A DNA stretch of 64,000 nucleotides from Eledone cirrhosa (GCA_964016885.1 OZ024751.1:4216001-4280000), one strand, 5' to 3'. Shown: positions 12,207 to 64,000, numbered from the stretch's first letter. Numbers and translations are program-made. The notes: generated by a model not told the origin, from the sequence alone.

Positions 12207-12243
<37 letters not shown>

Positions 12244-32140: not shown

Positions 32141-32595
32141 TTATATATATATGTATATATATATATTTATATATATATGTATATATATATATTTATATAT
32201 ATATGTATATATATATGTATATATATATGTATATATATGTATATATATATATTTATATATATATGTATATGTATATATATTTATATATATATGTATATAT
32301 ATGTATATATATATATTTATATATATATGTATATATATGTATATATATATATGTATATATATGTGTATATATATATTTATATATATATGTATATATATGT
32401 ATATATATATATGTATATATATGTGTATATATATATTTATATATATATGTATATATATGTATATATATATATTTATATATATGTATATATATGTATATAT
32501 ATATGTATATATATATATTTATATATATATGTATATTTATATATATATGTATATATATGTATATATATATATTCATATATATATGTATATATATG

Positions 32596-32684: not shown

Positions 32685-32773
32685 TTATATATATATGTAT
32701 ATATATGTTTATATATATATATATGTATATATATATATTTATATATATATGTATATATATGTATATATATATA

Positions 32774-33598: not shown

Positions 33599-33600
<2 letters not shown>
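32774..33600 (+). mobile_element. Penelope-like element 3' fragment (GIY-YIG endonuclease remnant plus terminal region with hammerhead)
   Basis: [38 protein letters not shown] fits the YIG-T..R..H motif of PLE endonucleases. Hammerhead and AATAAA lie downstream. Confidence 0.75.
33441..33557 (+). ncRNA. Type I hammerhead motif with a very long stem II
   Basis: aggt-CTGACGA-catggtgtat...atacactata-GAAA-caattg-TT-acct-aataaa. Confidence 0.65.
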
Positions 33601-33629
<29 letters not shown>

Positions 33630-33976: not shown

Positions 33977-34268
33977 TGGGACGGGAACTGATTCTGGCTC
34001 GATTTCTACAGGTGGATGCCCTTCCTAACACCAGCCTCATTTACAGTGAGTGCTGGGTGCTTTTTTCCCGTGGCACCTCCACGACCACTTTACAGTGGAA
34101 TGATAGGTACACCAGTCCCTATCATCTCATTTCTACAGCTGAGTAAACTGGAACAATGTGATATAAAGTATCTTGCTCAAGGAAGCAACACATCACCCGG
34201 TCTGAGAATTGAACTCACAACCTTTTGATTGCAAGGCAAATGCTCTAACCACTAAGCCATGTGCCTCC
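33976..34268 (-). mobile_element. tRNA-derived CORE-like SINE (copy 3), 3' end lost at the junction with the RTE tail
   Basis: Co-linear with 7076-7420. Confidence 0.85.
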
Positions 34269-38740: not shown

Positions 38741-38890
38741 AAGAATGAATAATAACAGGTAGACATCATAAAAAGGTAGTTTATTCCGTGTGCTTACAAG
38801 TGTTTCCACGGTGGTACTGCAGCCTAGTTCCGCTACGTGCAAATTCACAAGTATTTGCAGAACTCGAATATCCAATGCTGTGACCACTGT
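38741..38890 (-). mobile_element. Penelope-like terminal fragment truncated inside a hammerhead motif
   Basis: Minus strand: long hairpin cagtggt..cagc...gctg..accaccg, then GAAA-cacttg-TA..aataaa. The CUGANGA half is missing. Confidence 0.4.
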
Positions 38891-39171
38891 ATATATATGT
38901 ATATATATATATAAGTATATATATATGTATATATATATGTATATATATGTATATATATATGTATATATATGTATATATATATATGTATATATATATGTAT
39001 ATATATATGTATATATATATATGTATATATATGTGTATATATATGTATATATATATATGTATATATATGTGTATATATATGTATATATATATGTATATAT
39101 ATATGTGTATATATATGTATATATATATGTATATATATATGTATATATATATATATGTATATATATGTGTA

Positions 39172-39207
<36 letters not shown>

Positions 39208-39493
39208 AATTGAAACAAAATGAAAACGAAATTTCATTTCTCACTCTTAGTATGGCACTTACTTAAATGTAAGTATGCATGTATACGTACATACATATAT
39301 GTATACAGACGTACAGTAGCATGCACATATATATATATATATATATACACATATATATACATATGCATACAGGTACACATACATATATGCACGTATCAGT
39401 TTAGCGGCGCTAACGTCGCTTTGTTCGTTTGTAAACAAACTGAACAGCCTGAATTTATGCCATACGGTGTTAAGTCAACCACGTCACCTTTTT

Positions 39494-39580
39494 GTTCAAC
39501 ACTGACACAGGAACGATGTACTAGTTTCAAGCTTGTTAGCTATCATCAGCACCGTTTACCCATCTGCCAGATAGTTGAAC
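39494..39580 (-). ncRNA. Type I hammerhead ribozyme of monomer 1 (recurs every ~470 bp)
   Basis: Minus strand: aacggtg-CTGATGA-t-agct-aaca-agct-t-GAAA-ctag-TA-catcgtt. GUA triplet, predicted cut between 39519 and 39518. Distal stems ctggca/tgtcag and gttcaac/gttgaac. Confidence 0.88.
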
Positions 39581-39629
39581 GTTCGAAAGTATATACTTTC
39601 CTTATGAAAATTAACGGCTGAGCAGCCTA

Positions 39630-39637
39630 ATTTGCAT
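39630..39637 (-). promoter_or_regulatory. Octamer motif ATGCAAAT, once per monomer
   Basis: Exact match 88 bp upstream of CTGATGA. Also present 100 bp upstream of CTGATGA in the diverged relative (31792-31799). Confidence 0.5.
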
Positions 39638-42146
39638 ATTGAGTGAGTTAAATCGGTCAGGCATACCGAAAACGATAAATTGAAACAAAATGAAAACGAA
39701 ATTTCATTTCTCACTCTTAGTATGGCACTTACTTAAATGTAAGTATGCATGTATACGTACATACATATATGTATACAGACGTACAGTAGCATGCACATAT
39801 ATATATATATATATATACACATATATATACATATGCATACAGGTACACATACATATATGCACGTATCAGTTTAGCGGCGCTAACGTCGCTTTGTTCGTTT
39901 GTAAACAAACTGAACAGCCTGAATTTATGCCATACGGTGTTAAGGCAACCACGTCACCTTTTTGTTCAACACTGACACAGGAACGATGTACTAGTTTCAA
40001 GCTTGTTAGCTATCATCAGCACCGTTTACCCATCTGCCAGATAGTTGAACGTTCGAAAGTATATACTTTCCTTATGAAAATTAACGGCTGAGCAGCCTAA
40101 TTTGCATATTGAGTGAGTTAAATCGGTCAGGCATACCGAAAACGATAAATTGAAACAAAATGAAAACGAAATTTCATTTCTCACTCTTAGTATGGCACTT
40201 ACTTAAATGTAAGTATGCATGTATACGTACATACATATATGTATACAGACGTACAGTAGCATGCACATATATATATATATATGTATACACATATATATAC
40301 ATATGCATACAGGTACACATACATATATGCACGTATCAGTTTAGCGGCGCTAACGTCGCTTTGTTCGTTTGTAAACAAACTGAACAGCCTGAATTTATGC
40401 CATACGGTGTTAAGGCAACCACGTCACCTTTTTGTTCAACACTGACACAGGAACGATGTACTAGTTTCAAGCTTGTTAGCTATCATCAGCACCGTTTACC
40501 CATCTGCCAGATAGTTGAACGTTCGAAAGTATATACTTTCCTTATGAAAATTAACGGCTGAGCAGCCTAATTTGCATATTGAGTGAGTTAAATCGGTCAG
40601 GCATACCGAAAACGATAAATTGAAACAAAATGAAAACGAAATTTCATTTCTCACTCTTAGTATGGCACTTACTTAAATGTAAGTATGCATGTATACGTAC
40701 ATACATATATGTATACAGACGTACAGTAGCATGCACATATATATATATATATATATACACATATATATACATATGCATACAGGTACACATACATATATGC
40801 ACGTATCAGTTTAGCGGCGCTAACGTCGCTTTGTTCGTTTGTAAACAAACTGAACAGCCTGAATTTATGCCATACGGTGTTAAGGCAACCACGTCACCTT
40901 TTTGTTCAACACTGACACAGGAACGATGTACTAGTTTCAAGCTTGTTAGCTATCATCAGCACCGTTTACCCATCTGCCAGATAGTTGAACGTTCGAAAGT
41001 ATATACTTTCCTTATGAAAATTAACGGCTGAGCAGCCTAATTTGCATATTGAGTGAGTTAAATCGGTCAGGCATACCGAAAACGATAAATTGAAACAAAA
41101 TGAAAACGAAATTTCATTTCTCACTCTTAGTATGGCACTTACTTAAATGTAAGTATGCATGTATACGTACATACATATATGTATACAGACGTACAGTAGC
41201 ATGCACATATATATATATATATGTATACACATATATATACATATGCATACAGGTACACATACATATATGCACGTATCAGTTTAGCGGCGCTAACGTCGCT
41301 TTGTTCGTTTGTAAACAAACTGAACAGCCTGAATGTATGCCATACGGTGTTAAGGCAACCACGTCACCTTTTTGTTCAACACTGACACAGGAACGATGTA
41401 CTAGTTTCAAGCTTGTTAGCTATCATCAGCACCGTTTACCCATCTGCCAGATAGTTGAACGTTCGAAAGTATATACTTTCCTTATGAAAATTAACGGCTG
41501 AGCAGCCTAATTTGCATATTGAGTGAGTTAAATCGGTCAGGCATACCGAAAACGATAAATTGAAACAAAATGAAAACGAAATTTCATTTCTCACTCTTAG
41601 TATGGCACTTACTTAAATGTAAGTATGCATGTATACGTACATACATATATGTATACAGACGTACAGTAGCATGCACATATATATATATATATATATACAC
41701 ATATATATACATATGCATACAGGTACACATACATATATGCACGTATCAGTTTAGCGGCGCTAACGTCGCTTTGTTCGTTTGTAAACAAACTGAACAGCCT
41801 GAATTTATGCCATACGGTGTTAAGGCAACCACGTCACCTTTTTGTTCAACACTGACACAGGAACGATGTACTAGTTTCAAGCTTGTTAGCTATCATCAGC
41901 ACCGTTTACCCATCTGCCAGATAGTTGAACGTTCGAAAGTATATACTTTCCTTATGAAAATTAACGGCTGAGCAGCCTAATTTGCATATTGAGTGAGTTA
42001 AATCGGTCAGGCATACCGAAAACGATAAATTGAAACAAAATGAAAACGAAATTTCATTTCTCACTCTTAGTATGGCACTTACTTAAATGTAAGTATGCAT
42101 GTATACGTACATACATATATGTATACAGACGTACAGTAGCATGCAC

Positions 42147-42177
<31 letters not shown>

Positions 42178-43550
42178 TATACATATGCATACAGGTACAC
42201 ATACATATATGCACGTATCAGTTTAGCGGCGCTAACGTCGCTTTGTTCGTTTGTAAACAAACTGAACAGCCTGAATTTATGCCATACGGTGTTAAGGCAA
42301 CCACGTCACCTTTTTGTTCAACACTGACACAGGAACGATGTACTAGTTTCAAGCTTGTTAGCTATCATCAGCACCGTTTACCCATCTGCCAGATAGTTGA
42401 ACGTTCGAAAGTATATACTTTCCTTATGAAAATTAACGGCTGAGCAGCCTAATTTGCATATTGAGTGAGTTAAATCGGTCAGGCATACCGAAAACGATAA
42501 ATTGAAACAAAATGAAAACGAAATTTCATTTCTCACTCTTAGTATGGCACTTACTTAAATGTAAGTATGCATGTATACGTACATACATATATGTATACAG
42601 ACGTACAGTAGCATGCACATATATATATATATATGTATACACATATATATACATATGCATACAGGTACACATACATATATGCACGTATCAGTTTAGCGGC
42701 GCTAACGTCGCTTTGTTCGTTTGTAAACAAACTGAACAGCCTGAATTTATGCCATACGGTGTTAAGGCAACCACGTCACCTTTTTGTTCAACACTGACAC
42801 AGGAACGATGTACTAGTTTCAAGCTTGTTAGCTATCATCAGCACCGTTTACCCATCTGCCAGATAGTTGAACGTTCGAAAGTATATACTTTCCTTATGAA
42901 AATTAACGGCTGAGCAGCCTAATTTGCATATTGAGTGAGTTAAATCGGTCAGGCATACCGAAAACGATAAATTGAAACAAAATGAAAACGAAATTTCATT
43001 TCTCACTCTTAGTATGGCACTTACTTAAATGTAAGTATGCATGTATACGTACATACATATATGTATACAGACGTACAGTAGCATGCACATATATATATAT
43101 ACACATATATATACATATGCATACAGGTACACATACATATATGCACGTATCAGTTTAGCGGCGCTAACGTCGCTTTGTTCGTTTGTAAACAAACTGAACA
43201 GCCTGAATTTATGCCATACGGTGTTAAGGCAACCACGTCACCTTTTTGTTCAACACTGACACAGGAACGATGTACTAGTTTCAAGCTTGTTAGCTATCAT
43301 CAGCACCGTTTACCCATCTGCCAGATAGTTGAACGTTCGAAAGTATATACTTTCCTTATGAAAATTAACGGCTGAGCAGCCTAATTTGCATATTGAGTGA
43401 GTTAAATCGGTCAGGCATACCGAAAACGATAAATTGAAACAAAATGAAAACGAAATTTCATTTCTCACTCTTAGTATGGCACTTACTTAAATGTAAGTAT
43501 GCATGTATACGTACATACATATATGTATACAGACGTACAGTAGCATGCAC

Positions 43551-43581
<31 letters not shown>

Positions 43582-44019
43582 TATACATATGCATACAGGT
43601 ACACATACATATATGCACGTATCAGTTTAGCGGCGCTAACGTCGCTTTGTTCGTTTGTAAACAAACTGAACAGCCTGAATTTATGCCATACGGTGTTAAG
43701 GCAACCACGTCACCTTTTTGTTCAACACTGACACAGGAACGATGTACTAGTTTCAAGCTTGTTAGCTATCATCAGCACCGTTTACCCATCTGCCAGATAG
43801 TTGAACGTTCGAAAGTATATACTTTCCTTATGAAAATTAACGGCTGAGCAGCCTAATTTGCATATTGAGTGAGTTAAATCGGTCAGGCATACCGAAAACG
43901 ATAAATTGAAACAAAATGAAAACGAAATTTCATTTCTCACTCTTAGTATTGCACTTACTTAAATGTAAGTATGCATGTATACGTACATACATATATGTAT
44001 ACAGACGTACAGTAGCATG

Positions 44020-44059
<40 letters not shown>

Positions 44060-47000
44060 TATACATATGCATACAGGTACACATACATATATGCACGTAT
44101 CAGTTTAGCGGCGCTAACGTCGCTTTGTTCGTTTGTAAACAAACTGAACAGCCTGAATTTATGCCATACGGTGTTAAGGCAACCACGTCACCTTTTTGTT
44201 CAACACTGACACAGGAACGATGTACTAGTTTCAAGCTTGTTAGCTATCATCAGCACCGTTTACCCATCTGCCAGATAGTTGAACGTTCGAAAGTATATAC
44301 TTTCCTTATGAAAATTAACGGCTGAGCAGCCTAATTTGCATATTGAGTGAGTTAAATCGGTCAGGCATACCGAAAACGATAAATTGAAACAAAATGAAAA
44401 CGAAATTTCATTTCTCACTCTTAGTATGGCACTTACTTAAATGTAAGTATGCATGTATACGTACATACATATATGTATACAGACGTACAGTAGCATGCAC
44501 ATATATATATATATATATACACACATATATATACATATGCATACAGGTACACATACATATATGCACGTATCAGTTTAGCGGCGCTAACGTCGCTTTGTTC
44601 GTTTGTAAACAAACTGAACAGCCTGAATTTATGCCATACGGTGTTAAGGCAACCACGTCACCTTTTTGTTCAACACTGACACAGGAACGATGTACTAGTT
44701 TCAAGCTTGTTAGCTATCATCAGCACCGTTTACCCATCTGCCAGATAGTTGAACGTTCGAAAGTATATACTTTCCTTATGAAAATTAACGGCTGAGCAGC
44801 CTAATTTGCATATTGAGTGAGTTAAATCGGTCAGGCATACCGAAAACGATAAATTGAAACAAAATGAAAACGAAATTTCATTTCTCACTCTTAGTATGGC
44901 ACTTACTTAAATGTAAGTATGCATGTATACGTACATACATATATGTATACAGACGTACAGTAGCATGCACATATATATATATATATGTATACACATATAT
45001 ATACATATGCATACAGGTACACATACGTATATGCACGTATCAGTTTAGCGGCGCTAACGTCGCTTTGTTCGTTTGTAAACAAACTGAACAGCCTGAATTT
45101 ATGCCATACGGTGTTAAGGCAACCACGTCACCTTTTTGTTCAACACTGACACAGGAACGATGTACTAGTTTCAAGCTTGTTAGCTATCATCAGCACCGTG
45201 TACCCATCTGCCAGATAGTTGAACGTTCGAAAGTATATACTTTCCTTATGAAAATTAACGGCTGAGCAGCCTAATTTGCATATTGAGTGAGTTAAATCGG
45301 TCAGGCATACCGAAAACGATAAATTGAAACAAAATGAAAACGAAATTTCATTTCTCACTCTTAGTATGGCACTTACTTAAATGTAAGTATGCATGTATAC
45401 GTACATACATATATGTATACAGACGTACAGTAGCATGCACATATATATATATATATATATACACATATATATACATATGCATACAGGTACACATACATAT
45501 ATGCACGTATCAGTTTAGCGGCGCTAACGTCGCTTTGTTCGTTTGTAAACAAACTGAACAGCCTGAATTTATGCCATACGGTGTTAAGGCAACCACGTCA
45601 CCTTTTTGTTCAACACTGACACAGGAACGATGTACTAGTTTCAAGCTTGTTAGCTATCATCAGCACCGTTTACCCATCTGCCAGATAGTTGAACGTTCGA
45701 AAGTATATACTTTCCTTATGAAAATTAACGGCTGAGCAGCCTAATTTGCATATTGAGTGAGTTAAATCGGTCAGGCATACCGAAAACGATAAATTGAAAC
45801 AAAATGAAAACGAAATTTCATTTCTCACTCTTAGTATGGCACTTACTTAAATGTAAGTATGCATGTATACGTACATACATATATGTATACAGACGTACAG
45901 TAGCATGCACATATATATATATATATATACACACATATATATACATATGCATACAGGTACACATACATATATGCACGTATCAGTTTAGCGGCGCTAACGT
46001 CGCTTTGTTCGTTTGTAAACAAACTGAACAGCCTGAATTTATGCCATACGGTGTTAAGGCAACCACGTCACCTTTTTGTTCAACACTGACACAGGAACGA
46101 TGTACTAGTTTCAAGCTTGTTAGCTATCATCAGCACCGTTTACCCATCTGCCAGATAGTTGAACGTTCGAAAGTATATACTTTCCTTATGAAAATTAACG
46201 GCTGAGCAGCCTAATTTGCATATTGAGTGAGTTAAATCGGTCAGGCATACCGAAAACGATAAATTGAAACAAAATGAAAACGAAATTTCATTTCTCACTC
46301 TTAGTATGGCACTTACTTAAATGTAAGTATGCATGTATACGTACATACATATATGTATACAGACGTACAGTAGCATGCACATATATATATATATATGTAT
46401 ACACATATATATACATATGCATACAGGTACACATACGTATATGCACGTATCAGTTTAGCGGCGCTAACGTCGCTTTGTTCGTTTGTAAACAAACTGAACA
46501 GCCTGAATTTATGCCATACGGTGTTAAGGCAACCACGTCACCTTTTTGTTCAACACTGACACAGGAACGATGTACTAGTTTCAAGCTTGTTAGCTATCAT
46601 CAGCACCGTGTACCCATCTGCCAGATAGTTGAACGTTCGAAAGTATATACTTTCCTTATGAAAATTAACGGCTGAGCAGCCTAATTTGCATATTGAGTGA
46701 GTTAAATCGGTCAGGCATACCGAAAACGATAAATTGAAACAAAATGAAAACGAAATTTCATTTCTCACTCTTAGTATGGCACTTACTTAAATGTAAGTAT
46801 GCATGTATACGTACATACATATATGTATACAGACGTACAGTAGCATGCACATATATATATATATATATATACACATATATATACATATGCATACAGGTAC
46901 ACATACATATATGCACGTATCAGTTTAGCGGCGCTAACGTCGCTTTGTTCGTTTGTAAACAAACTGAACAGCCTGAATTTATGCCATACGGTGTTAAGGC

Positions 47001-47322
47001 AACCACGTCACCTTTTTGTTCAACACTGACACAGGAACGATGTACTAGTTTCAAGCTTGTTAGCTATCATCAGCACCGTTTACCCATCTGCCAGATAGTT
47101 GAACGTTCGAAAGTATATACTTTCCTTATGAAAATTAACGGCTGAGCAGCCTAATTTGCATATTGAGTGAGTTAAATCGGTCAGGCATACCGAAAACGAT
47201 AAATTGAAACAAAATGAAAACGAAATTTCATTTCTCACTCTTAGTATGGCACTTACTTAAATGTAAGTATGCATGTATACGTACATACATATATGTATAC
47301 AGACGTACAGTAGCATGCACAC

Positions 47323-47355
<33 letters not shown>

Positions 47356-48735
47356 TATACATATGCATACAGGTACACATACATATATGCACGTATCAGT
47401 TTAGCGGCGCTAACGTCGCTTTGTTCGTTTGTAAACAAACTGAACAGCCTGAATTTATGCCATACGGTGTTAAGGCAACCACGTCACCTTTTTGTTCAAC
47501 ACTGACACAGGAACGATGTACTAGTTTCAAGCTTGTTAGCTATCATCAGCACCGTTTACCCATCTGCCAGATAGTTGAACGTTCGAAAGTATATACTTTC
47601 CTTATGAAAATTAACGGCTGAGCAGCCTAATTTGCATATTGAGTGAGTTAAATCGGTCAGGCATACCGAAAACGATAAATTGAAACAAAATTAAAACGAA
47701 ATTTCATTTCTCACTCTTAGTATGGCACTTACTTAAATGTAAGTATGCATGTATACGTACATACATATATGTATACAGACGTACAGTAGCATGCACACAT
47801 ATATATATATATATATATACACATATATATACATATGCATACAGGTACACATACATATATGCACGTATCAGTTTAGCGGCGCTAACGTCGCTTTGTTCGT
47901 TTGTAAACAAACTGAACAGCCTGAATTTATGCCATACGGTGTTAAGGCAACCACGTCACCTTTTTGTTCAACACTGACACAGGAACGATGTACTAGTTTC
48001 AAGCTTGTTAGCTATCATCAGCACCGTTTACCCATCTGCCAGATAGTTGAACGTTCGAAAGTATATACTTTCCTTATGAAAATTAACGGCTGAGCAGCCT
48101 AATTTGCATATTGAGTGAGTTAAATCGGTCAGGCATACCGAAAACGATAAATTGAAACAAAATGAAAACGAAATTTCATTTCTCACTCTTAGTATGGCAC
48201 TTACTTAAATGTAAGTATGCATGTATACGTACATACATATATGTATACAGACGTACAGTAGCATGCACATATATATATATATATATATACACATATATAT
48301 ACATATGCATATAGGTACACATACATATATGCACGTATCAGTTTAGCGGCGCTAACGTCGCTTTGTTCGTTTGTAAACAAACTGAACAGCCTGAATTTAT
48401 GCCATACGGTGTTAAGGCAACCACGTCACCTTTTTGTTCAACACTGACACAGGAACGATGTACTAGTTTCAAGCTTGTTAGCTATCATCAGCACCGTTTA
48501 CCCATCTGCCAGATAGTTGAACGTTCGAAAGTATATACTTTCCTTATGAAAATTAACGGCTGAGCAGCCTAATTTGCATATTGAGTGAGTTAAATCGGTC
48601 AGGCATACCGAAAACGATAAATTGAAACAAAATGAAAACGAAATTTCATTTCTCACTCTTAGTATGGCACTTACTTAAATGTAAGTATGCATGTATACGT
48701 ACATACATATATGTATACAGACGTACAGTAGCATG

Positions 48736-48775
<40 letters not shown>

Positions 48776-49213
48776 TATACATATGCATACAGGTACACAT
48801 ACATATATGCACGTATCAGTTTAGCGGCGCTAACGTCGCTTTGTTCGTTTGTAAACAAACTGAACAGCCTGAATTTATGCCATACGGTGTTAAGGCAACC
48901 ACGTCACCTTTTTGTTCAACACTGACACAGGAACGATGTACTAGTTTCAAGCTTGTTAGCTATCATCAGCACCGTTTACCCATCTGCCAGATAGTTGAAC
49001 GTTCGAAAGTATATACTTTCCTTATGAAAATTAACGGCTGAGCAGCCTAATTTGCATATTGAGTGAGTTAAATCGGTCAGGCATACCGAAAACGATAAAT
49101 TGAAACAAAATGAAAACGAAATTTCATTTCTCACTCTTAGTATGGCACTTACTTAAATGTAAGTATGCATGTATACGTACATACATATATGTATACAGAC
49201 GTACAGTAGCATG

Positions 49214-49255
<42 letters not shown>

Positions 49256-50166
49256 TATACATATGCATACAGGTACACATACATATATGCACGTATCAGT
49301 TTAGCGGCGCTAACGTCGCTTTGTTCGTTTGTAAACAAACTGAACAGCCTGAATTTATGCCATACGGTGTTAAGGCAACCACGTCACCTTTTTGTTCAAC
49401 ACTGACACAGGAACGATGTACTAGTTTCAAGCTTGTTAGCTATCATCAGCACCGTTTACCCATCTGCCAGATAGTTGAACGTTCGAAAGTATATACTTTC
49501 CTTATGAAAATTAACGGCTGAGCAGCCTAATTTGCATATTGAGTGAGTTAAATCGGTCAGGCATACCGAAAACGATAAATTGAAACAAAATGAAAACGAA
49601 ATTTCATTTCTCACTCTTAGTATGGCACTTACTTAAATGTAAGTATGCATGTATACGTACATACATATATGTATACAGACGTACAGTAGCATGCACATAT
49701 ATATATATATATATATACACATATATATACATATGCATACAGGTACACATACATATATGCACGTATCAGTTTAGCGGCGCTAACGTCGCTTTGTTCGTTT
49801 GTAAACAAACTGAACAGCCTGAATTTATGCCATACGGTGTTAAGGCAACCACGTCACCTTTTTGTTCAACACTGACACAGGAACGATGTACTAGTTTCAA
49901 GCTTGTTAGCTATCATCAGCACCGTTTACCCATCTGCCAGATAGTTGAACGTTCGAAAGTATATACTTTCCTTATGAAAATTAACGGCTGAGCAGCCTAA
50001 TTTGCATATTGAGTGAGTTAAATCGGTCAGGCATACCGAAAACGATAAATTGAAACAAAATGAAAACGAAATTTCATTTCTCACTCTTAGTATGGCACTT
50101 ACTTAAATGTAAGTATGCATGTATACGTACATACATATATGTATACAGACGTACAGTAGCATGCAC

Positions 50167-50197
<31 letters not shown>

Positions 50198-50638
50198 TAT
50201 ACATATGCATACAGGTACACATACATATATGCACGTATCAGTTTAGCGGCGCTAACGTCGCTTTGTTCGTTTGTAAACAAACTGAACAGCCTGAATTTAT
50301 GCCATACGGTGTTAAGGCAACCACGTCACCTTTTTGTTCAACACTGACACAGGAACGATGTACTAGTTTCAAGCTTGTTAGCTATCATCAGCACCGTTTA
50401 CCCATCTGCCAGATAGTTGAACGTTCGAAAGTATATACTTTCCTTATGAAAATTAACGGCTGAGCAGCCTAATTTGCATATTGAGTGAGTTAAATCGGTC
50501 AGGCATACCGAAAACGATAAATTGAAACAAAATGAAAACGAAATTTCATTTCTCACTCTTAGTATGGCACTTACTTAAATGTAAGTATGCATGTATACGT
50601 ACATACATATATGTATACAGACGTACAGTAGCATGCAC

Positions 50639-50669
<31 letters not shown>

Positions 50670-51576
50670 TATACATATGCATACAGGTACACATACATAT
50701 ATGCACGTATCAGTTTAGCGGCGCTAACGTCGCTTTGTTCGTTTGTAAACAAACTGAACAGCCTGAATTTATGCCATACGGTGTTAAGGCAACCACGTCA
50801 CCTTTTTGTTCAACACTGACACAGGAACGATGTACTAGTTTCAAGCTTGTTAGCTATCATCAGCACCGTTTACCCATCTGCCAGATAGTTGAACGTTCGA
50901 AAGTATATACTTTCCTTATGAAAATTAACGGCTGAGCAGCCTAATTTGCATATTGAGTGAGTTAAATCGGTCAGGCATACCGAAAACGATAAATTGAAAC
51001 AAAATGAAAACGAAATTTCATTTCTCACTCTTAGTATGGCACTTACTTAAATGTAAGTATGCATGTATACGTACATACATATATGTATACAGACGTACAG
51101 TAGCATGCACATATATATATATATATATATACACATATATATACATATGCATACAGGTACACATACATATATGCACGTATCAGTTTAGCGGCGCTAACGT
51201 CGCTTTGTTCGTTTGTAAACAAACTGAACAGCCTGAATTTATGCCATACGGTGTTAAGGCAACCACGTCACCTTTTTGTTCAACACTGACACAGGAACGA
51301 TGTACTAGTTTCAAGCTTGTTAGCTATCATCAGCACCGTTTACCCATCTGCCAGATAGTTGAACGTTCGAAAGTATATACTTTCCTTATGAAAATTAACG
51401 GCTGAGCAGCCTAATTTGCATATTGAGTGAGTTAAATCGGTCAGGCATACCGAAAACGATAAAATGAAACAAAATGAAAACGAAATTTCATTTCTCACTC
51501 TTAGTATGGCACTTACTTAAATGTAAGTATGCATGTATACGTACATACATATATGTATACAGACGTACAGTAGCAT

Positions 51577-51615
<39 letters not shown>

Positions 51616-54600
51616 TATACATATGCATACAGGTACACATACATATATGCACGTATCAGTTTAGCGGCGCTAACGTCGCTTTGTTCGTTTGTAAACAAAC
51701 TGAACAGCCTGAATTTATGCCATACGGTGTTAAGGCAACCACGTCACCTTTTTGTTCAACACTGACACAGGAACGATGTACTAGTTTCAAGCTTGTTAGC
51801 TATCATCAGCACCGTTTACCCATCTGCCAGATAGTTGAACGTTCGAAAGTATATACTTTCCTTATGAAAATTAACGGCTGAGCAGCCTAATTTGCATATT
51901 GAGTGAGTTAAATCGGTCAGGCATACCGAAAACGATAAATTGAAACAAAATGAAAACGAAATTTCATTTCTCACTCTTAGTATGGCACTTACTTAAATGT
52001 AAGTATGCATGTATACGTACATACGTATATGTATACAGACGTACAGTAGCATGCACATATATATATATATATATATACACATATATATACATATGCATAC
52101 AGGTACACATACATATATGCACGTATCAGTTTAGCGGCGCTAACGTCGCTTTGTTCGTTTGTAAACAAACTGAACAGCCTGAATTTATGCCATACGGTGT
52201 TAAGGCAACCACGTCACCTTTTTGTTCAACACTGACACAGGAACGATGTACTAGTTTCAAGCTTGTTAGCTATCATCAGCACCGTTTACCCATCTGCCAG
52301 ATAGTTGAACGTTCGAAAGTATATACTTTCCTTATGAAAATTAACGGCTGAGCAGCCTAATTTGCATATTGAGTGAGTTAAATCGGTCAGGCATACCGAA
52401 AACGATAAATTGAAACAAAATGAAAACGAAATTTCATTTCTCACTCTTAGTATGGCACTTACTTAAATGTAAGTATGCATGTATACGTACATACATATAT
52501 GTATACAGACGTACAGTAGCATGCACATATATATATATATACACATATATATACATATGCATACAGGTACACATACATATATGCACGTATCAGTTTAGCG
52601 GCGCTAACGTCGCTTTGTTCGTTTGTAAACAAACTGAACAGCCTGAATTTATGCCATACGGTGTTAAGGCAACCACGTCACCTTTTTGTTCAACACTGAC
52701 ACAGGAACGATGTACTAGTTTCAAGCTTGTTAGCTATCATCAGCACCGTTTACCCATCTGCCAGATAGTTGAACGTTCGAAAGTATATACTTTCCTTATG
52801 AAAATTAACGGCTGAGCAGCCTAATTTGCATATTGAGTGAGTTAAATCGGTCAGGCATACCGAAAACGATAAATTGAAACAAAATGAAAACGAAATTTCA
52901 TTTCTCACTCTTAGTATGGCACTTACTTAAATGTAAGTATGCATGTATACGTACATACGTATATGTATACAGACGTACAGTAGCATGCACATATATATAT
53001 ATATATATATACACATATATATACATATGCATACAGGTACACATACATATATGCACGTATCAGTTTAGCGGCGCTAACGTCGCTTTGTTCGTTTGTAAAC
53101 AAACTGAACAGCCTGAATTTATGCCATACGGTGTTAAGGCAACCACGTCACCTTTTTGTTCAACACTGACACAGGAACGATGTACTAGTTTCAAGCTTGT
53201 TAGCTATCATCAGCACCGTTTACCCATCTGCCAGATAGTTGAACGTTCGAAAGTATATACTTTCCTTATGAAAATTAACGGCTGAGCAGCCTAATTTGCA
53301 TATTGAGTGAGTTAAATCGGTCAGGCATACCGAAAACGATAAATTGAAACAAAATGAAAACGAAATTTCATTTCTCACTCTTAGTATGGCACTTACTTAA
53401 ATGTAAGTATGCATGTATACGTACATACATATATGTATACAGACGTACAGTAGCATGCACATATATATATATATATGTATACACATATATATACATATGC
53501 ATACAGGTACACATACATATATGCACGTATCAGTTTAGCGGCGCTAACGTCGCTTTGTTCGTTTGTAAACAAACTGAACAGCCTGAATTTATGCCATACG
53601 GTGTTAAGGCAACCACGTCACCTTTTTGTTCAACACTGACACAGGAACGATGTACTAGTTTCAAGTTTGTTAGCTATCATCAGCACCGTTTACCCATCTG
53701 CCAGATAGTTGAACGTTCGAAAGTATATACTTTCCTTATGAAAATTAACGGCTGAGCAGCCTAATTTGCATATTGAGTGAGTTAAATCGGTCAGGCATAC
53801 CGAAAACGATAAATTGAAACAAAATGAAAACGAAATTTCATTTCTCACTCTTAGTATGGCACTTACTTAAATGTAAGTATGCATGTATACGTACATACAT
53901 ATATGTATACAGACGTACAGTAGCATGCACATATATATATATATACACATATATATACATATGCATACAGGTACACATACATATATGCACGTATCAGTTT
54001 AGCGGCGCTAACGTCGCTTTGTTCGTTTGTAAACAAACTGAACAGCCTGAATTTATGCCATACGGTGTTAAGGCAACCACGTCACCTTTTTGTTCAACAC
54101 TGACACAGGAACGATGTACTAGTTTCAAGCTTGTTAGCTATCATCAGCACCGTTTACCCATCTGCCAGATAGTTGAACGTTCGAAAGTATATACTTTCCT
54201 TATGAAAATTAACGGCTGAGCAGCCTAATTTGCATATTGATTGAGTTAAATCGGTCAGGCATACCGAAAACGATAAATTGAAACAAAATGAAAACGAAAT
54301 TTCATTTCTCACTCTTAGTATGGCACTTACTTAAATGTAAGTATGCATGTATACGTACATACATATATGTATACAGACGTACAGTAGCATGCACATATAT
54401 ATATATATATATATACACATATATATACATATGCATACAGGTACACATACATATATGCACGTATCAGTTTAGCGGCGCTAACGTCGCTTTGTTCGTTTGT
54501 AAACAAACTGAACAGCCTGAATTTATGCCATACGGTGTTAAGGCAACCACGTCACCTTTTTGTTCAACACTGACACAGGAACGATGTACTAGTTTCAAGC

Positions 54601-56273
54601 TTGTTAGCTATCATCAGCACCGTTTACCCATCTGCCAGATAGTTGAACGTTCGAAAGTATATACTTTCCTTATGAAAATTAACGGCTGAGCAGCCTAATT
54701 TGCATATTGAGTGAGTTAAATCGGTCAGGCATACCGAAAACGATAAATTGAAACAAAATGAAAACGAAATTTCATTTCTCACTCTTAGTATGGCACTTAC
54801 TTAAATGTAAGTATGCATGTATACGTACATACATATATGTATACAGACGTACAGTAGCATGCACATATATATATATATATGTATACACATATATATACAT
54901 ATGCATACAGGTACACATACATATATGCACGTATCAGTTTAGCGGCGCTAACGTCGCTTTGTTCGTTTGTAAACAAACTGAACAGCCTGAATTTATGCCA
55001 TACGGTGTTAAGGCAACCACGTCACCTTTTTGTTCAACACTGACACAGGAACGATGTACTAGTTTCAAGCTTGTTAGCTATCATCAGCACCGTTTACCCA
55101 TCTGCCAGATAGTTGAACGTTCGAAAGTATATACTTTCCTTATGAAAATTAACGGCTGAGCAGCCTAATTTGCATATTGAGTGAGTTAAATCGGTCAGGC
55201 ATACCGAAAACGATAAATTGAAACAAAATGAAAACGAAATTTCATTTCTCACTCTTAGTATGGCACTTACTTAAATGTAAGTATGCATGTATACGTACAT
55301 ACATATATGTATACAGACGTACAGTAGCATGCACACATATATATATATATATATATACACATATATATACATATGCATACAGGTACACATACATATATGC
55401 ACGTATCAGTTTAGCGGCGCTAACGTCGCTTTGTTCGTTTGTAAACAAACTGAACAGCCTGAATTTATGCCATACGGTGTTAAGGCAACCACGTCACCTT
55501 TTTGTTCAACACTGACACAGGAACGATGTACTAGTTTCAAGCTTGTTAGCTATCATCAGCACCGTTTACCCATCTGCCAGATAGTTGAACGTTCGAAAGT
55601 ATATACTTTCCTTATGAAAATTAACGGCTGAGCAGCCTAATTTGCATATTGAGTGAGTTAAATCGGTCAGGCATACCGAAAACGATAAATTGAAACAAAA
55701 TGAAAACGAAATTTCATTTCTCACTCTTAGTATGGCACTTACTTAAATGTAAGTATGCATGTATACGTACATACATATATGTATACAGACGTACAGTAGC
55801 ATGCACATATATATATATATATATATACACATATATATACATATGCATATAGGTACACATACATATATGCACGTATCAGTTTAGCGGCGCTAACGTCGCT
55901 TTGTTCGTTTGTAAACAAACTGAACAGCCTGAATTTATGCCATACGGTGTTAAGGCAACCACGTCACCTTTTTGTTCAACACTGACACAGGAACGATGTA
56001 CTAGTTTCAAGCTTGTTAGCTATCATCAGCACCGTTTACCCATCTGCCAGATAGTTGAACGTTCGAAAGTATATACTTTCCTTATGAAAATTAACGGCTG
56101 AGCAGCCTAATTTGCATATTGAGTGAGTTAAATCGGTCAGGCATACCGAAAACGATAAATTGAAACAAAATGAAAACGAAATTTCATTTCTCACTCTTAG
56201 TATGGCACTTACTTAAATGTAAGTATGCATGTATACGTACATACATATATGTATACAGACGTACAGTAGCATG

Positions 56274-56313
<40 letters not shown>

Positions 56314-56751
56314 TATACATATGCATACAGGTACACATACATATATGCACGTATCAGTTTAGCGGCGCTAACGTCGCTTTGTTCGTTTGTAAACAAACTG
56401 AACAGCCTGAATTTATGCCATACGGTGTTAAGGCAACCACGTCACCTTTTTGTTCAACACTGACACAGGAACGATGTACTAGTTTCAAGCTTGTTAGCTA
56501 TCATCAGCACCGTTTACCCATCTGCCAGATAGTTGAACGTTCGAAAGTATATACTTTCCTTATGAAAATTAACGGCTGAGCAGCCTAATTTGCATATTGA
56601 GTGAGTTAAATCGGTCAGGCATACCGAAAACGATAAATTGAAACAAAATGAAAACGAAATTTCATTTCTCACTCTTAGTATGGCACTTACTTAAATGTAA
56701 GTATGCATGTATACGTACATACATATATGTATACAGACGTACAGTAGCATG

Positions 56752-56793
<42 letters not shown>

Positions 56794-57704
56794 TATACAT
56801 ATGCATACAGGTACACATACATATATGCACGTATCAGTTTAGCGGCGCTAACGTCGCTTTGTTCGTTTGTAAACAAACTGAACAGCCTGAATTTATGCCA
56901 TACGGTGTTAAGGCAACCACGTCACCTTTTTGTTCAACACTGACACAGGAACGATGTACTAGTTTCAAGCTTGTTAGCTATCATCAGCACCGTTTACCCA
57001 TCTGCCAGATAGTTGAACGTTCGAAAGTATATACTTTCCTTATGAAAATTAACGGCTGAGCAGCCTAATTTGCATATTGAGTGAGTTAAATCGGTCAGGC
57101 ATACCGAAAACGATAAATTGAAACAAAATGAAAACGAAATTTCATTTCTCACTCTTAGTATGGCACTTACTTAAATGTAAGTATGCATGTATACGTACAT
57201 ACATATATGTATACAGACGTACAGTAGCATGCACATATATATATATATATATATACACATATATATACATATGCATACAGGTACACATACATATATGCAC
57301 GTATCAGTTTAGCGGCGCTAACGTCGCTTTGTTCGTTTGTAAACAAACTGAACAGCCTGAATTTATGCCATACGGTGTTAAGGCAACCACGTCACCTTTT
57401 TGTTCAACACTGACACAGGAACGATGTACTAGTTTCAAGCTTGTTAGCTATCATCAGCACCGTTTACCCATCTGCCAGATAGTTGAACGTTCGAAAGTAT
57501 ATACTTTCCTTATGAAAATTAACGGCTGAGCAGCCTAATTTGCATATTGAGTGAGTTAAATCGGTCAGGCATACCGAAAACGATAAATTGAAACAAAATG
57601 AAAACGAAATTTCATTTCTCACTCTTAGTATGGCACTTACTTAAATGTAAGTATGCATGTATACGTACATACATATATGTATACAGACGTACAGTAGCAT
57701 GCAC

Positions 57705-57735
<31 letters not shown>

Positions 57736-58176
57736 TATACATATGCATACAGGTACACATACATATATGCACGTATCAGTTTAGCGGCGCTAACGTCGCT
57801 TTGTTCGTTTGTAAACAAACTGAACAGCCTGAATTTATGCCATACGGTGTTAAGGCAACCACGTCACCTTTTTGTTCAACACTGACACAGGAACGATGTA
57901 CTAGTTTCAAGCTTGTTAGCTATCATCAGCACCGTTTACCCATCTGCCAGATAGTTGAACGTTCGAAAGTATATACTTTCCTTATGAAAATTAACGGCTG
58001 AGCAGCCTAATTTGCATATTGAGTGAGTTAAATCGGTCAGGCATACCGAAAACGATAAATTGAAACAAAATGAAAACGAAATTTCATTTCTCACTCTTAG
58101 TATGGCACTTACTTAAATGTAAGTATGCATGTATACGTACATACATATATGTATACAGACGTACAGTAGCATGCAC

Positions 58177-58207
<31 letters not shown>

Positions 58208-59114
58208 TATACATATGCATACAGGTACACATACATATATGCACGTATCAGTTTAGCGGCGCTAACGTCGCTTTGTTCGTTTGTAAACAAACTGAACAGC
58301 CTGAATTTATGCCATACGGTGTTAAGGCAACCACGTCACCTTTTTGTTCAACACTGACACAGGAACGATGTACTAGTTTCAAGCTTGTTAGCTATCATCA
58401 GCACCGTTTACCCATCTGCCAGATAGTTGAACGTTCGAAAGTATATACTTTCCTTATGAAAATTAACGGCTGAGCAGCCTAATTTGCATATTGAGTGAGT
58501 TAAATCGGTCAGGCATACCGAAAACGATAAATTGAAACAAAATGAAAACGAAATTTCATTTCTCACTCTTAGTATGGCACTTACTTAAATGTAAGTATGC
58601 ATGTATACGTACATACATATATGTATACAGACGTACAGTAGCATGCACATATATATATATATATATATACACATATATATACATATGCATACAGGTACAC
58701 ATACATATATGCACGTATCAGTTTAGCGGCGCTAACGTCGCTTTGTTCGTTTGTAAACAAACTGAACAGCCTGAATTTATGCCATACGGTGTTAAGGCAA
58801 CCACGTCACCTTTTTGTTCAACACTGACACAGGAACGATGTACTAGTTTCAAGCTTGTTAGCTATCATCAGCACCGTTTACCCATCTGCCAGATAGTTGA
58901 ACGTTCGAAAGTATATACTTTCCTTATGAAAATTAACGGCTGAGCAGCCTAATTTGCATATTGAGTGAGTTAAATCGGTCAGGCATACCGAAAACGATAA
59001 AATGAAACAAAATGAAAACGAAATTTCATTTCTCACTCTTAGTATGGCACTTACTTAAATGTAAGTATGCATGTATACGTACATACATATATGTATACAG
59101 ACGTACAGTAGCAT

Positions 59115-59153
<39 letters not shown>

Positions 59154-62100
59154 TATACATATGCATACAGGTACACATACATATATGCACGTATCAGTTT
59201 AGCGGCGCTAACGTCGCTTTGTTCGTTTGTAAACAAACTGAACAGCCTGAATTTATGCCATACGGTGTTAAGGCAACCACGTCACCTTTTTGTTCAACAC
59301 TGACACAGGAACGATGTACTAGTTTCAAGCTTGTTAGCTATCATCAGCACCGTTTACCCATCTGCCAGATAGTTGAACGTTCGAAAGTATATACTTTCCT
59401 TATGAAAATTAACGGCTGAGCAGCCTAATTTGCATATTGAGTGAGTTAAATCGGTCAGGCATACCGAAAACGATAAATTGAAACAAAATGAAAACGAAAT
59501 TTCATTTCTCACTCTTAGTATGGCACTTACTTAAATGTAAGTATGCATGTATACGTACATACGTATATGTATACAGACGTACAGTAGCATGCACATATAT
59601 ATATATATATATATACACATATATATACATATGCATACAGGTACACATACATATATGCACGTATCAGTTTAGCGGCGCTAACGTCGCTTTGTTCGTTTGT
59701 AAACAAACTGAACAGCCTGAATTTATGCCATACGGTGTTAAGGCAACCACGTCACCTTTTTGTTCAACACTGACACAGGAACGATGTACTAGTTTCAAGC
59801 TTGTTAGCTATCATCAGCACCGTTTACCCATCTGCCAGATAGTTGAACGTTCGAAAGTATATACTTTCCTTATGAAAATTAACGGCTGAGCAGCCTAATT
59901 TGCATATTGAGTGAGTTAAATCGGTCAGGCATACCGAAAACGATAAATTGAAACAAAATGAAAACGAAATTTCATTTCTCACTCTTAGTATGGCACTTAC
60001 TTAAATGTAAGTATGCATGTATACGTACATACATATATGTATACAGACGTACAGTAGCATGCACATATATATATATATATGTATACACATATATATACAT
60101 ATGCATACAGGTACACATACATATATGCACGTATCAGTTTAGCGGCGCTAACGTCGCTTTGTTCGTTTGTAAACAAACTGAACAGCCTGAATTTATGCCA
60201 TACGGTGTTAAGGCAACCACGTCACCTTTTTGTTCAACACTGACACAGGAACGATGTACTAGTTTCAAGTTTGTTAGCTATCATCAGCACCGTTTACCCA
60301 TCTGCCAGATAGTTGAACGTTCGAAAGTATATACTTTCCTTATGAAAATTAACGGCTGAGCAGCCTAATTTGCATATTGAGTGAGTTAAATCGGTCAGGC
60401 ATACCGAAAACGATAAATTGAAACAAAATGAAAACGAAATTTCATTTCTCACTCTTAGTATGGCACTTACTTAAATGTAAGTATGCATGTATACGTACAT
60501 ACATATATGTATACAGACGTACAGTAGCATGCACATATATATATATATACACATATATATACATATGCATACAGGTACACATACATATATGCACGTATCA
60601 GTTTAGCGGCGCTAACGTCGCTTTGTTCGTTTGTAAACAAACTGAACAGCCTGAATTTATGCCATACGGTGTTAAGGCAACCACGTCACCTTTTTGTTCA
60701 ACACTGACACAGGAACGATGTACTAGTTTCAAGCTTGTTAGCTATCATCAGCACCGTTTACCCATCTGCCAGATAGTTGAACGTTCGAAAGTATATACTT
60801 TCCTTATGAAAATTAACGGCTGAGCAGCCTAATTTGCATATTGATTGAGTTAAATCGGTCAGGCATACCGAAAACGATAAATTGAAACAAAATGAAAACG
60901 AAATTTCATTTCTCACTCTTAGTATGGCACTTACTTAAATGTAAGTATGCATGTATACGTACATACATATATGTATACAGACGTACAGTAGCATGCACAT
61001 ATATATATATATATATATACACATATATATACATATGCATACAGGTACACATACATATATGCACGTATCAGTTTAGCGGCGCTAACGTCGCTTTGTTCGT
61101 TTGTAAACAAACTGAACAGCCTGAATTTATGCCATACGGTGTTAAGGCAACCACGTCACCTTTTTGTTCAACACTGACACAGGAACGATGTACTAGTTTC
61201 AAGCTTGTTAGCTATCATCAGCACCGTTTACCCATCTGCCAGATAGTTGAACGTTCGAAAGTATATACTTTCCTTATGAAAATTAACGGCTGAGCAGCCT
61301 AATTTGCATATTGAGTGAGTTAAATCGGTCAGGCATACCGAAAACGATAAATTGAAACAAAATGAAAACGAAATTTCATTTCTCACTCTTAGTATGGCAC
61401 TTACTTAAATGTAAGTATGCATGTATACGTACATACATATATGTATACAGACGTACAGTAGCATGCACATATATATATATATATGTATACACATATATAT
61501 ACATATGCATACAGGTACACATACATATATGCACGTATCAGTTTAGCGGCGCTAACGTCGCTTTGTTCGTTTGTAAACAAACTGAACAGCCTGAATTTAT
61601 GCCATACGGTGTTAAGGCAACCACGTCACCTTTTTGTTCAACACTGACACAGGAACGATGTACTAGTTTCAAGCTTGTTAGCTATCATCAGCACCGTTTA
61701 CCCATCTGCCAGATAGTTGAACGTTCGAAAGTATATACTTTCCTTATGAAAATTAACGGCTGAGCAGCCTAATTTGCATATTGAGTGAGTTAAATCGGTC
61801 AGGCATACCGAAAACGATAAATTGAAACAAAATGAAAACGAAATTTCATTTCTCACTCTTAGTATGGCACTTACTTAAATGTAAGTATGCATGTATACGT
61901 ACATACATATATGTATACAGACGTACAGTAGCATGCACATATATATATATATATATATACACATATATATACATATGCATACAGGTACACATACATATAT
62001 GCACGTATCAGTTTAGCGGCGCTAACGTCGCTTTGTTCGTTTGTAAACAAACTGAACAGCCTGAATTTATGCCATACGGTGTTAAGGCAACCACGTCACC

Positions 62101-64000
62101 TTTTTGTTCAACACTGACACAGGAACGATGTACTAGTTTCAAGCTTGTTAGCTATCATCAGCACCGTTTACCCATCTGCCAGATAGTTGAACGTTCGAAA
62201 GTATATACTTTCCTTATGAAAATTAACGGCTGAGCAGCCTAATTTGCATATTGAGTGAGTTAAATCGGTCAGGCATACCGAAAACGATAAATTGAAACAA
62301 AATGAAAACGAAATTTCATTTCTCACTCTTAGTATGGCACTTACTTAAATGTAAGTATGCATGTATACGTACATACATATATGTATACAGACGTACAGTA
62401 GCATGCACATATATATATATATATGTATACACATATATATACATATGCATACAGGTACACATACATATATGCACGTATCAGTTTAGCGGCGCTAACGTCG
62501 CTTTGTTCGTTTGTAAACAAACTGAACAGCCTGAATTTATGCCATACGGTGTTAAGGCAACCACGTCACCTTTTTGTTCAACACTGACACAGGAACGATG
62601 TACTAGTTTCAAGCTTGTTAGCTATCATCAGCACCGTTTACCCATCTGCCAGATAGTTGAACGTTCGAAAGTATATACTTTCCTTATGAAAATTAACGGC
62701 TGAGCAGCCTAATTTGCATATTGAGTGAGTTAAATCGGTCAGGCATACCGAAAACGATAAATTGAAACAAAATGAAAACGAAATTTCATTTCTCACTCTT
62801 AGTATGGCACTTACTTAAATGTAAGTATGCATGTATACGTACATACATATATGTATACAGACGTACAGTAGCATGCACATATATATATATATACACATAT
62901 ATATACATATGCATACAGGTACACATACATATATGCACGTATCAGTTTAGCGGCGCTAACGTCGCTTTGTTCGTTTGTAAACAAACTGAACAGCCTGAAT
63001 TTATGCCATACGGTGTTAAGGCAACCACGTCACCTTTTTGTTCAACACTGACACAGGAACGATGTACTAGTTTCAAGCTTGTTAGCTATCATCAGCACCG
63101 TTTACCCATCTGCCAGATAGTTGAACGTTCGAAAGTATATACTTTCCTTATGAAAATTAACGGCTGAGCAGCCTAATTTGCATATTGATTGAGTTAAATC
63201 GGTCAGGCATACCGAAAACGATAAATTGAAACAAAATGAAAACGAAATTTCATTTCTCACTCTTAGTATGGCACTTACTTAAATGTAAGTATGCATGTAT
63301 ACGTACATACATATATGTATACAGACGTACAGTAGCATGCACATATATATATATATATATATACACATATATATACATATGCATACAGGTACACATACAT
63401 ATATGCACGTATCAGTTTAGCGGCGCTAACGTCGCTTTGTTCGTTTGTAAACAAACTGAACAGCCTGAATTTATGCCATACGGTTTTAAGGCAACCACGT
63501 CACCTTTTTGTTCAACACTGACACAGGAACGATGTACTAGTTTCAAGCTTGTTAGCTATCATCAGCACCGTTTACCCATCTGCCAGATAGTTGAACGTTC
63601 GAAAGTATATACTTTCCTTATGAAAATTAACGGCTGAGCAGCCTAATTTGCATATTGAGTGAGTTAAATCGGTCAGGCATACCGAAAACGATAAATTGAA
63701 ACAAAATGAAAACGAAATTTCATTTCTCACTCTTAGTATGGCACTTACTTAAATGTAAGTATGCATGTATACGTACATACATATATGTATACAGACGTAC
63801 AGTAGCATGCACATATATATATATATATATATACACATATATATACATATGCATACAGGTACACATACATATATGCACGTATCAGTTTAGCGGCGCTAAC
63901 GTCGCTTTGTTCGTTTGTAAACAAACTGAACAGCCTGAATTTATGCCATACGGTGTTAAGGCAACCACGTCACCTTTTTGTTCAACACTGACACAGGAAC

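Follow-up and report, generated by a model that had tools for sequence, protein, structure and literature searches.

Retrozymes without long terminal repeats (non-LTR retrozymes) are described from animals as tandem non-coding units that each carry one type I hammerhead ribozyme and have a GC content below 50%, and that occur as dispersed monomers and as long arrays, with tens of thousands of motifs in genomes that also hold Penelope-like elements (PLEs) (PMC7229834; bioRxiv 10.64898/2026.07.22.740005). The sections of these two sources on genomic copies give units of 51-972 bp, 62-mers in coral, arrays of 180 and 300 units elsewhere and more than 100,000 motifs per genome, and PLEs are proposed there as retrozyme partners from co-occurrence and homology. 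Here we analyse a window of 64,000 nucleotides from Eledone cirrhosa (GCA_964016885.1, OZ024751.1:4216001-4280000, or C11:4216001-4280000 of a 3.0-Gb assembly), in which a 470-nt unit is repeated head to tail from position 39205 to the last nucleotide. By sequence and layout this array is a non-LTR retrozyme, and we consider it probable that it represents one insertion of such an element, whose non-coding RNA would parasitise a PLE, in all likelihood one from the Hydra clade. The element class, the size of the array and its variant hammerhead, with U.U at the base of stem II, are not new; what the locus adds is a retrozyme with PLE-type insertion ends and, in each unit, a candidate upstream element of the host U6 type.

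Other described systems share part of this anatomy. As far as the relevant sections of 10.1101/2021.04.23.441226 and PMC11167929 describe them, Hydra-clade PLEs and the mechanism that gives PLEs their "tail" likewise involve units in tandem, an inverted arm that is truncated at its 5' side, 3' ends at two fixed sites and a (TA)n or AT-rich target, whereas the retrozyme, short of a formal search for one, has no open reading frame (ORF), carries a canonical rather than a minimal hammerhead and has no sequence in common with the PLE family compared. The PLE protein is reported to nick both strands of AT-rich DNA and to start reverse transcription at two internal RNA sites, and this two-site internal initiation makes the tail, a structure described as unique to PLEs (PMC11167929). 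In the passages of PMC8557442 concerned, non-autonomous PLEs of Chlamydomonas with pseudo-LTRs (pLTRs) resemble their autonomous partners at the 3' end, unlike the retrozyme here. Plant LTR retrozymes are likewise non-coding, hammerhead-bearing and dependent on an autonomous retroelement, but in the account of PMC7761336 they have type III hammerheads, LTRs, a primer-binding site (PBS), a polypurine tract (PPT) and 4-bp target duplications, none of which was seen here, the PBS and PPT without a formal search. The unit is slightly longer than the 150-450 bp given for the retrozymes of PMC7229834. For the published retrozymes, in the sections examined, the link to PLEs was drawn from co-occurrence and pLTR homology, expression and circles were demonstrated, and a two-site tail, an inverted arm and (TA)n targeting are not reported; here the link comes from insertion anatomy, with no pLTR homology to the PLE family compared, and expression and circles are predictions. 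Literature searches brought up neither this family nor any account of retrozymes with tails or with a U6-type promoter, and an entry in a repeat database or supplementary catalogue may exist.

Tandem Repeats Finder gives a period of 470, 52.7 copies and 99% matches at 39205-64000, which bears out the first-pass annotation in its claim of a 470-bp satellite of more than 24.8 kb beginning at 39205. The unit has a GC content of 0.36. Between successive cleavage sites, from which unit positions are counted, the window contains 51 units of 462-480 nt, 21 of them distinct, with a mean pairwise substitution of 0.3% and with all length variation confined to a TA-rich hairpin. The array runs past the window to a total of 88 minus-strand hammerheads, after which the strand switches and three plus-strand hammerheads follow, so that the insertion spans 42,833 bp inside a (TA)n tract, with two arms that join back to back and are directed outwards. 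Its left terminus lies at unit position 314 and its right terminus at unit position 255, with TA tract beyond each. The parts are as follows.

39205..64000, minus strand: long arm of the two-armed family-A retrozyme insertion, head-to-tail 470-nt units, continuing to C11:4296739 (88 hammerheads)
To C11:4298037, plus strand: inverted arm of the insertion with 3 hammerheads, following the long arm
39205..39264, minus strand: "tail", with the left terminus at unit position 314 (39205) and position 255 at 39264 here, the latter being the site used at the far end of the insertion
39744..39868, minus strand: TA-rich, long self-complementary hairpin of the unit
38890..39204, strand not assigned: (TA)n-type microsatellite, the left insertion target, a TA tract flanking the right end as well

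The two arms share 97-100% identity and the termini are exact, which indicates that the insertion is young. Along the long arm, blocks of 3, 11 and 16 units return with the same series of unit types, and hence much of the array length arose by duplication at the DNA level after insertion; rolling-circle copying as the sole origin of the 88 units is ruled out by these block duplications. Two further long arrays, one of about 13 kb (family A, on C4) and one of about 15 kb (family C, on C1), use the same end sites. A target-site duplication is illegible inside the TA tracts, and a non-TA island on the left side of the array is not repeated on its right side. An LTR-type layout is absent from the mapped insertions. 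At 470 nt the unit is too short for the 784-codon reverse transcriptase (RT) and GIY-YIG frame of the PLEs described below, and it is therefore no autonomous PLE.

The insertion ends recur across the genome. In families B and C all 38 mapped 3' ends of terminal copies fall at unit positions 225-230 (18) or 298-300 (20), and in family A 26 of 34 fall at 247-263 (13) or 296-314 (13), with 8 elsewhere; rows whose alignment reached the segment end were dropped from these counts (3 for B/C, 6 for A). The two sites are homologous between the A and B lineages, inspection shows nearly all mapped ends to enter TA tracts, and of 11 two-armed family-B insertions 10 have one end at each site. As in PLEs, an inverted 5'-truncated arm stands beside a tandem arm; the tail measures 59 nt in A and about 70 nt in B, against 30-40 nt in the passages cited for other PLEs and 83 nt in the Hydra family of this genome. 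The loci were found through their hammerheads, so that their 5' ends are a biased sample; in two arms an apparent start at the cleavage site proved to lie 4 and 23 nt beyond it. That these insertions carry the end signature of PLE mobilisation is well supported. At one family-B insertion (L052:1265-2490) both ends lie at 299 and the left and right flanks are reverse-complementary to each other, which points to a fold-back rearrangement or an assembly artefact.

The same genome holds intact PLEs of 784 codons in many identical copies, one of them at C1:437200255-437202606, and these too consist of tandem units with an inverted 5'-truncated arm and ends in (TA)n. All 21 of their visible ends lie at two sites 83 nt apart, and all eight two-armed insertions have one of each; none of these ends adjoins a T run. 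The target is thus common to the retrozyme insertions and the intact elements, which we assign to the Hydra clade, and not to Neptune, by their DKT and CxCX5C motifs. The ESM Atlas neighbours of the protein are PLE-like, and Pfam scans of it returned no family. Both motifs are given as Hydra features, and Hydra-clade families are said to insert in (TA)n, in the sections of 10.1101/2021.04.23.441226 concerned. The unit of the intact 784-codon family contains no CUGANGA core. Elsewhere we noted at least two further types of PLE-associated hammerhead, with a palindromic TA-rich helix III and fixed ends in TA tracts (L084-L107, at some 900-1,100 nt past the match, and L003, L011, L016). A PLE fragment joined to a family-B array (L047) was considered as a chimera and rejected, at least 19 other copies of the same PLE family entering a TA-rich tract at that point; its junction is better read as an insertion into such a tract.

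The genome-wide copy count called for by the first-pass annotation shows the family to be dispersed: the exact family-A core, U.U included, occurs 25,369 times against 0 for the control. A general core pattern that takes in all sister families occurs 40,617 times against 13 for its reversed control, so the motif is not due to chance; at about 0.45 kb per core the retrozyme families would make up some 0.6% of the genome, a very rough estimate. Searching with the unit gave at least 44 DNA matches of 85-100% identity on many contigs, and copies range from monomers through multimers. The 82 distinct units fall into four clusters, with A-type and B/C-type units 62-64% identical, and one sister copy lies within the window.

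31566..32142, plus strand: sister family B, a solo copy that ends at unit position 225 in a TA tract; the 469-nt unit has about 64% identity to that of A

Its hammerhead core, at 31892, has a canonical G-C pair at the base of stem II and a GUC triplet. Judged by sequence identity family B is very young, the best 40 of 1,193 candidates being 99-100% identical over the full query. Among 24 distinct motifs, 7 of 11 hammerhead pairs are changed on both sides and only GUA, GUC and GUU occur as cleavage triplets; covariation in this set is 0.304, compared with 0.114 for shuffled and at most 0.095 for slid partners, in a test that is inflated by relatedness and uses motifs preselected for an intact core. 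Swaps between families in stems I and II can nevertheless be read directly off the alignment. Dispersed copies, covarying stems, retro-insertion anatomy and block duplications together support the view, already put forward from the window, of a non-autonomous retroelement amplified into a satellite. Shorter family-A subfamilies, with units of about 420-430 nt by core spacing, lie at C1:9968462-9972121 and C1:11021447-11022336.

Each unit carries one hammerhead, and the first copy in the window is laid out as follows.

39512..39556, minus strand: type I hammerhead, first copy, with the predicted cut between 39519 and 39518
39494..39580, minus strand: extended hairpin of 87 nt in the predicted fold, enclosing the hammerhead, with a UAA bulge beside stem I

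Stem I of this copy has seven pairs, one of them G.U, and is followed by CUGAUGA, a stem II with a U.U base and a 6-nt loop, GAAA, a one-pair helix III with a palindromic ACUAGU, and the GUA triplet; with a CUGANGA box, GAAA, an NUH triplet and open ends at stem I, it has the make-up of a type I core. We take the UAA bulge, by analogy, to be the loop-1 partner of the type I tertiary contact. The first-pass annotation had reported a complete minus-strand core free of mutation in 52 copies, and CUGAUGA, GAAA and GUA are indeed intact in all 52 minus-strand hammerheads of the window, of which 48 are identical across 62 nt, two have a G>A change that breaks one pair of stem II and two are altered in the bulge 5' of stem I. 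The cut that it placed at 39519/39518 coincides with the predicted site, and its enclosing hairpin of about 87 nt is predicted too, but the fold of the 121-nt region that contains this hairpin is no better than that of shuffles (z -1.06). The monomer as a whole is strongly self-paired (z -8.65, and -4.3 after removal of the TA hairpin). MicroRNA-family matches from Rfam on the TA hairpin are all under their cut-offs. The stem III that had been drawn from ACUAGU does not hold within one molecule, where a single A-U pair closes a CUAG loop and the pairing probability of the helix in the circle is 0.0. Alternatively, the palindrome can form a 6-bp duplex between two hammerheads, as in amphibian motifs. 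In a tandem dimer this double-hammerhead fold lies 0.9-3.1 kcal/mol above the minimum in family A and about 1.5 in B, compared with 15-18 kcal/mol for two single hammerheads, in an energy model that ignores core contacts. Since helix III consists of one pair and a palindrome, cleavage in family A would probably need two hammerheads.

The base of stem II had been flagged as a caveat. A canonical purine-pyrimidine pair is found there in families B and C (G-C), whereas the U.U of family A is family-wide, fixed in the 25,369 cores, with C-G in one A-like copy. As an objection to activity the caveat has largely fallen away, because the axolotl motif HHR_Amex2, with the same U.U at the base of helix II, is active (PMC7229834). 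In the data given there for axolotl, HHR_Amex1 has a helix III of one pair with a palindromic tetraloop as its cap, and the two motifs cleave poorly as monomers (6% and 22% for HHR_Amex1 and HHR_Amex2) and much better as dimers.

Upstream of each core the unit also carries a conserved region that resembles host promoters of the U6 type.

39626..39639, minus strand: extended octamer ATGCAAATTAG, a match to the host element that stands at -76 to -78 in the U6, U6atac and MRP genes
39601..39614, minus strand: conserved block TAATTTTCATA, which repeats the octamer block imperfectly and in inverted form and can pair with ATGCAAATTAG as an RNA hairpin
39589..39595, minus strand: TATA-like box, 42 nt after the octamer

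The octamer occurs once per unit, 52 times in the array and about 90 nt before the core, and it is exact in 182 of 195 scored copies at other loci, overlapping loci included. In the host, the octamer element at -76 to -78 and a TATA box near -30 are common to three U6 promoters, the MRP gene and the best U6atac gene. A matrix built from these five promoters scores family A at 20.5 and family B at 17.1, next to 11.8-18.7 for held-out host genes, and both families exceed 400 of 400 shuffles each, 522 of 522 genomic tiles and the eight U1/U2 upstream regions (maximum 5.6). Kept out of the matrix were 12 U6 and 5 U6atac matches that are pseudogene-like and have no element at -77, and four U6 loci, two with an insertion in the promoter and two without the element. 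The resemblance gives moderate support to the view that each unit carries a host U6-type upstream element, and it is close to an even question whether the octamer acts as promoter of the units. Transcription might start near 39564-39568, just 5' of stem I (unit positions of about 421-425, and about 411-412 in family B), in which case each unit would supply the promoter of the next. The internal promoter of newt satellite 2 is cited as of the small nuclear RNA (snRNA) type and transcribed by RNA polymerase II (Pol II) (PMC2220036, in the passage on promoters), whereas the element here matches U6, U6atac and MRP and not U1 or U2. A reading of TAATTTTCATA as a Drosophila-type proximal sequence element was rejected, the host U1/U2 upstream regions sharing another motif.

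Beyond the retrozyme, these host genes offered some observations of their own. The host U6-type promoter is compact, with its extended octamer at -77 (L134, L135, L136, L164, L170), and could be useful for guide-RNA expression in the lineage. The U1, U2 and RNase P genes share an ATCAGT-type motif near -58 to -67, so that RNase P groups with the Pol II snRNA genes (L149-L152, L171-L178, L191). In a tandem U6 array on C19 a repeat is inserted in some promoters and shifts the octamer to -270 (L140, L145). Promoterless U6 and U6atac copies lie in TA tracts or beside PLE terminal sequence (L147, L166, L180, L181, L182, L189), and there are hints that PLE enzymes copy small RNAs of RNA polymerase III (Pol III) in trans.

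For the retrozyme insertion we propose the following course. Tandem copies would be transcribed as RNA longer than one unit, possibly from the U6-type element of one unit serving the next. Two neighbouring hammerheads, to judge from their structure, would join by their ACUAGU palindromes and act as a double hammerhead in cleavage, giving a monomer of about 470 nt that a host ligase could circularise. A PLE protein would then nick (TA)n DNA and start reverse transcription at about unit positions 255 and 314, and one start per target strand, running across the cleavage junction, would leave two back-to-back tandem arms and one tail, the anatomy that the locus displays; an internal start can do without a free 3' end, so that a circular RNA would be a usable template. 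The long arm then grew to its 88 copies by block duplication in DNA, of which it bears the visible marks.

Several points weigh against this account. Transcription, cleavage and circle formation of the family-A array are steps that we infer, and self-cleavage of its transcript is a prediction from folding and covariation. The Rfam check suggested at the outset gives no hammerhead match at the gathering score: family A reaches 18.5 bits with HH9 (E 0.11) against a cut-off of 52, and family B, at 31.8 bits (E 4.6e-6), also stays below it. Family A joins a one-pair helix III and a U.U stem II base in one motif, where each of the axolotl motifs has one of these weaknesses, and a competing pairing lies over its core, the inner stem I pairs having probabilities of 0.18-0.28 in the circle against 0.65-0.97 for B. 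Both weaknesses and the competing pairing suggest that the family-A hammerhead is probably slow and dimer-dependent, so that little or no cleavage would be expected from a monomer transcript even of a live element, and a dimer would be informative. The full-length PLE family compared has no sequence in common with A or B (best E 0.31); that comparison covered one full-length family among 74,579 PLE candidates seen at first look, which belong to many families, and the actual partner may be another of these. Partial loci of a second PLE family likewise have no sequence in common with the retrozymes. In the Xenopus experiments reported in bioRxiv 10.64898/2026.07.22.740005, eight of nine predicted retrozyme dimers stayed uncleaved in vitro and one was cleaved, and for the one PLE for which PMC11167929 reports this in-vitro test, hammerhead-dead RNA was inserted normally, so cleavage and circles may be dispensable for mobility. 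These results, with the doubly weakened motif and its competing fold, also favour a different element, a non-autonomous derivative of a PLE whose mobile form is linear tandem RNA that stays uncleaved, with a hammerhead that is weak or serves for trimming only and with no circles from the array; autonomous PLEs yield the same tandem anatomy. We think this unlikely, because the core, the triplet rule and the stems are kept across families that are only 62-64% identical, and because the coral, mussel and axolotl retrozymes of PMC7229834, including the U.U variant, are described as cleaving and giving circles. The family may also be a self-contained nuclear RNA-circle replicon, with a captured U6-type Pol III promoter that is internal only in tandem or circular form, a dimer-only, U.U-damped hammerhead that would cut the multimer and then spare the circle, and recognition by a Hydra-clade PLE through structure alone, followed by two internal starts and rolling-circle copying into (TA)n. 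This is speculative and, in our estimate, somewhat unlikely; if true, a retrotransposon enzyme would copy a circular RNA that has neither a free 3' end nor homology to its own RNA.

Three further explanations concern the array, the octamer and the insertion ends separately. The array may be a silent satellite, one old insertion amplified and homogenised at the DNA level, with transcription confined to scattered master copies at other loci; the duplicated blocks fit such a history, and with a divergence of 0.3% the array would keep its cores intact even without selection. Against this, a promoter-like element and a core are kept in every unit, the exact termini and the near-identical inverted arm mark a young insertion, and the explanation would in any case bear on the locus and not on the family; we give it a tentative place, distinctly short of an even chance. 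Contigs from four of six sequencing runs, of a kind not on record, cover 30 of 30 bins in three runs and 4 of 30 in the fourth; they include one run of very high summed depth, gave neither joints nor piles of starts and are uninformative on expression, and a head-to-tail joint in reads cannot separate a circle from a tandem transcript. A nearly balanced case is the possibility that ATGCAAATTAG and the inverted TAATTTTCATA are the two arms of a conserved RNA hairpin and ATGCAAATTAG is no promoter, the units being transcribed by read-through from outside, and this we rate just below even. The pairing is predicted in both A and B; the octamer-TATA spacing is 42 nt in A against 46-48 nt in the five host genes, and an exact TATA(A/T)A box is missing from B; Pol III could be stopped by four T4 runs in the unit of A and by one T5 run in that of B; the host RNase P gene does without the element (score 2.5), which is present in the other five of six candidate host genes; and the review PMC7761336, in its part on animals, has metazoan retrozymes seemingly without promoters. 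On the other side, both families score on a par with the held-out host genes and above all controls, the octamer side retains a C that disrupts the hairpin, and internal promoters are cited for newt satellite 2 and a schistosome hammerhead satellite (PMC2220036, same passage). Finally, the distal end (314 in A, 299 in B) might be a Pol III termination point, with an ordinary long interspersed nuclear element (LINE) inserting from RNA 3' ends, since T runs at 293-320 in A and 293-297 in B adjoin this end and the window contains RTE- and CR1-like LINE fragments. This is highly improbable, because the second fixed end has no T run, the arms are inverted and there is no poly(A), because PLEs whose ends have no T run show the same two-site anatomy, and because tails are stated not to occur in non-LTR target-primed reverse transcription (PMC8557442, in the section concerned).

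The remaining features of the window are fragments of mobile elements. On the plus strand at 32773-33610, between TA tracts just after the family-B copy, lies a 5'-truncated, broken PLE fragment with a GIY-YIG-type motif. LINE fragments with endonuclease and RT frames, broken up by TA tracts, lie on the minus strand at 235-2597, 9184-12552 and 22780-22976 and are presumably RTE-like, and further LINE reading frames on that strand, at 27175-29385 and 3743-4491, we take to be CR1/L2-like. A transposase fragment at 12685-13110 (minus strand) is by its motif presumably Tc1/mariner-like. Two near-identical partial tRNA-like matches, at 7354-7411 and 34202-34259 on the minus strand, are probably heads of a tRNA-derived short interspersed nuclear element; ARAGORN called no tRNA gene, at these two matches included.

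How animal retrozymes are copied back into DNA, and how they are transcribed, are stated to be open questions in the sections of PMC7229834, PMC7761336 and bioRxiv 10.64898/2026.07.22.740005 that deal with their spread. The genome of Eledone cirrhosa offers the pieces for a direct test, namely a very young retrozyme lineage, exact predicted starts of reverse transcription and intact, recently active PLE frames. The intact PLEs share both target and end pattern with the retrozymes, so that a partnership long suspected becomes testable, and, if the account proposed here is true, their kind of enzyme would copy small circular RNAs into a defined microsatellite.

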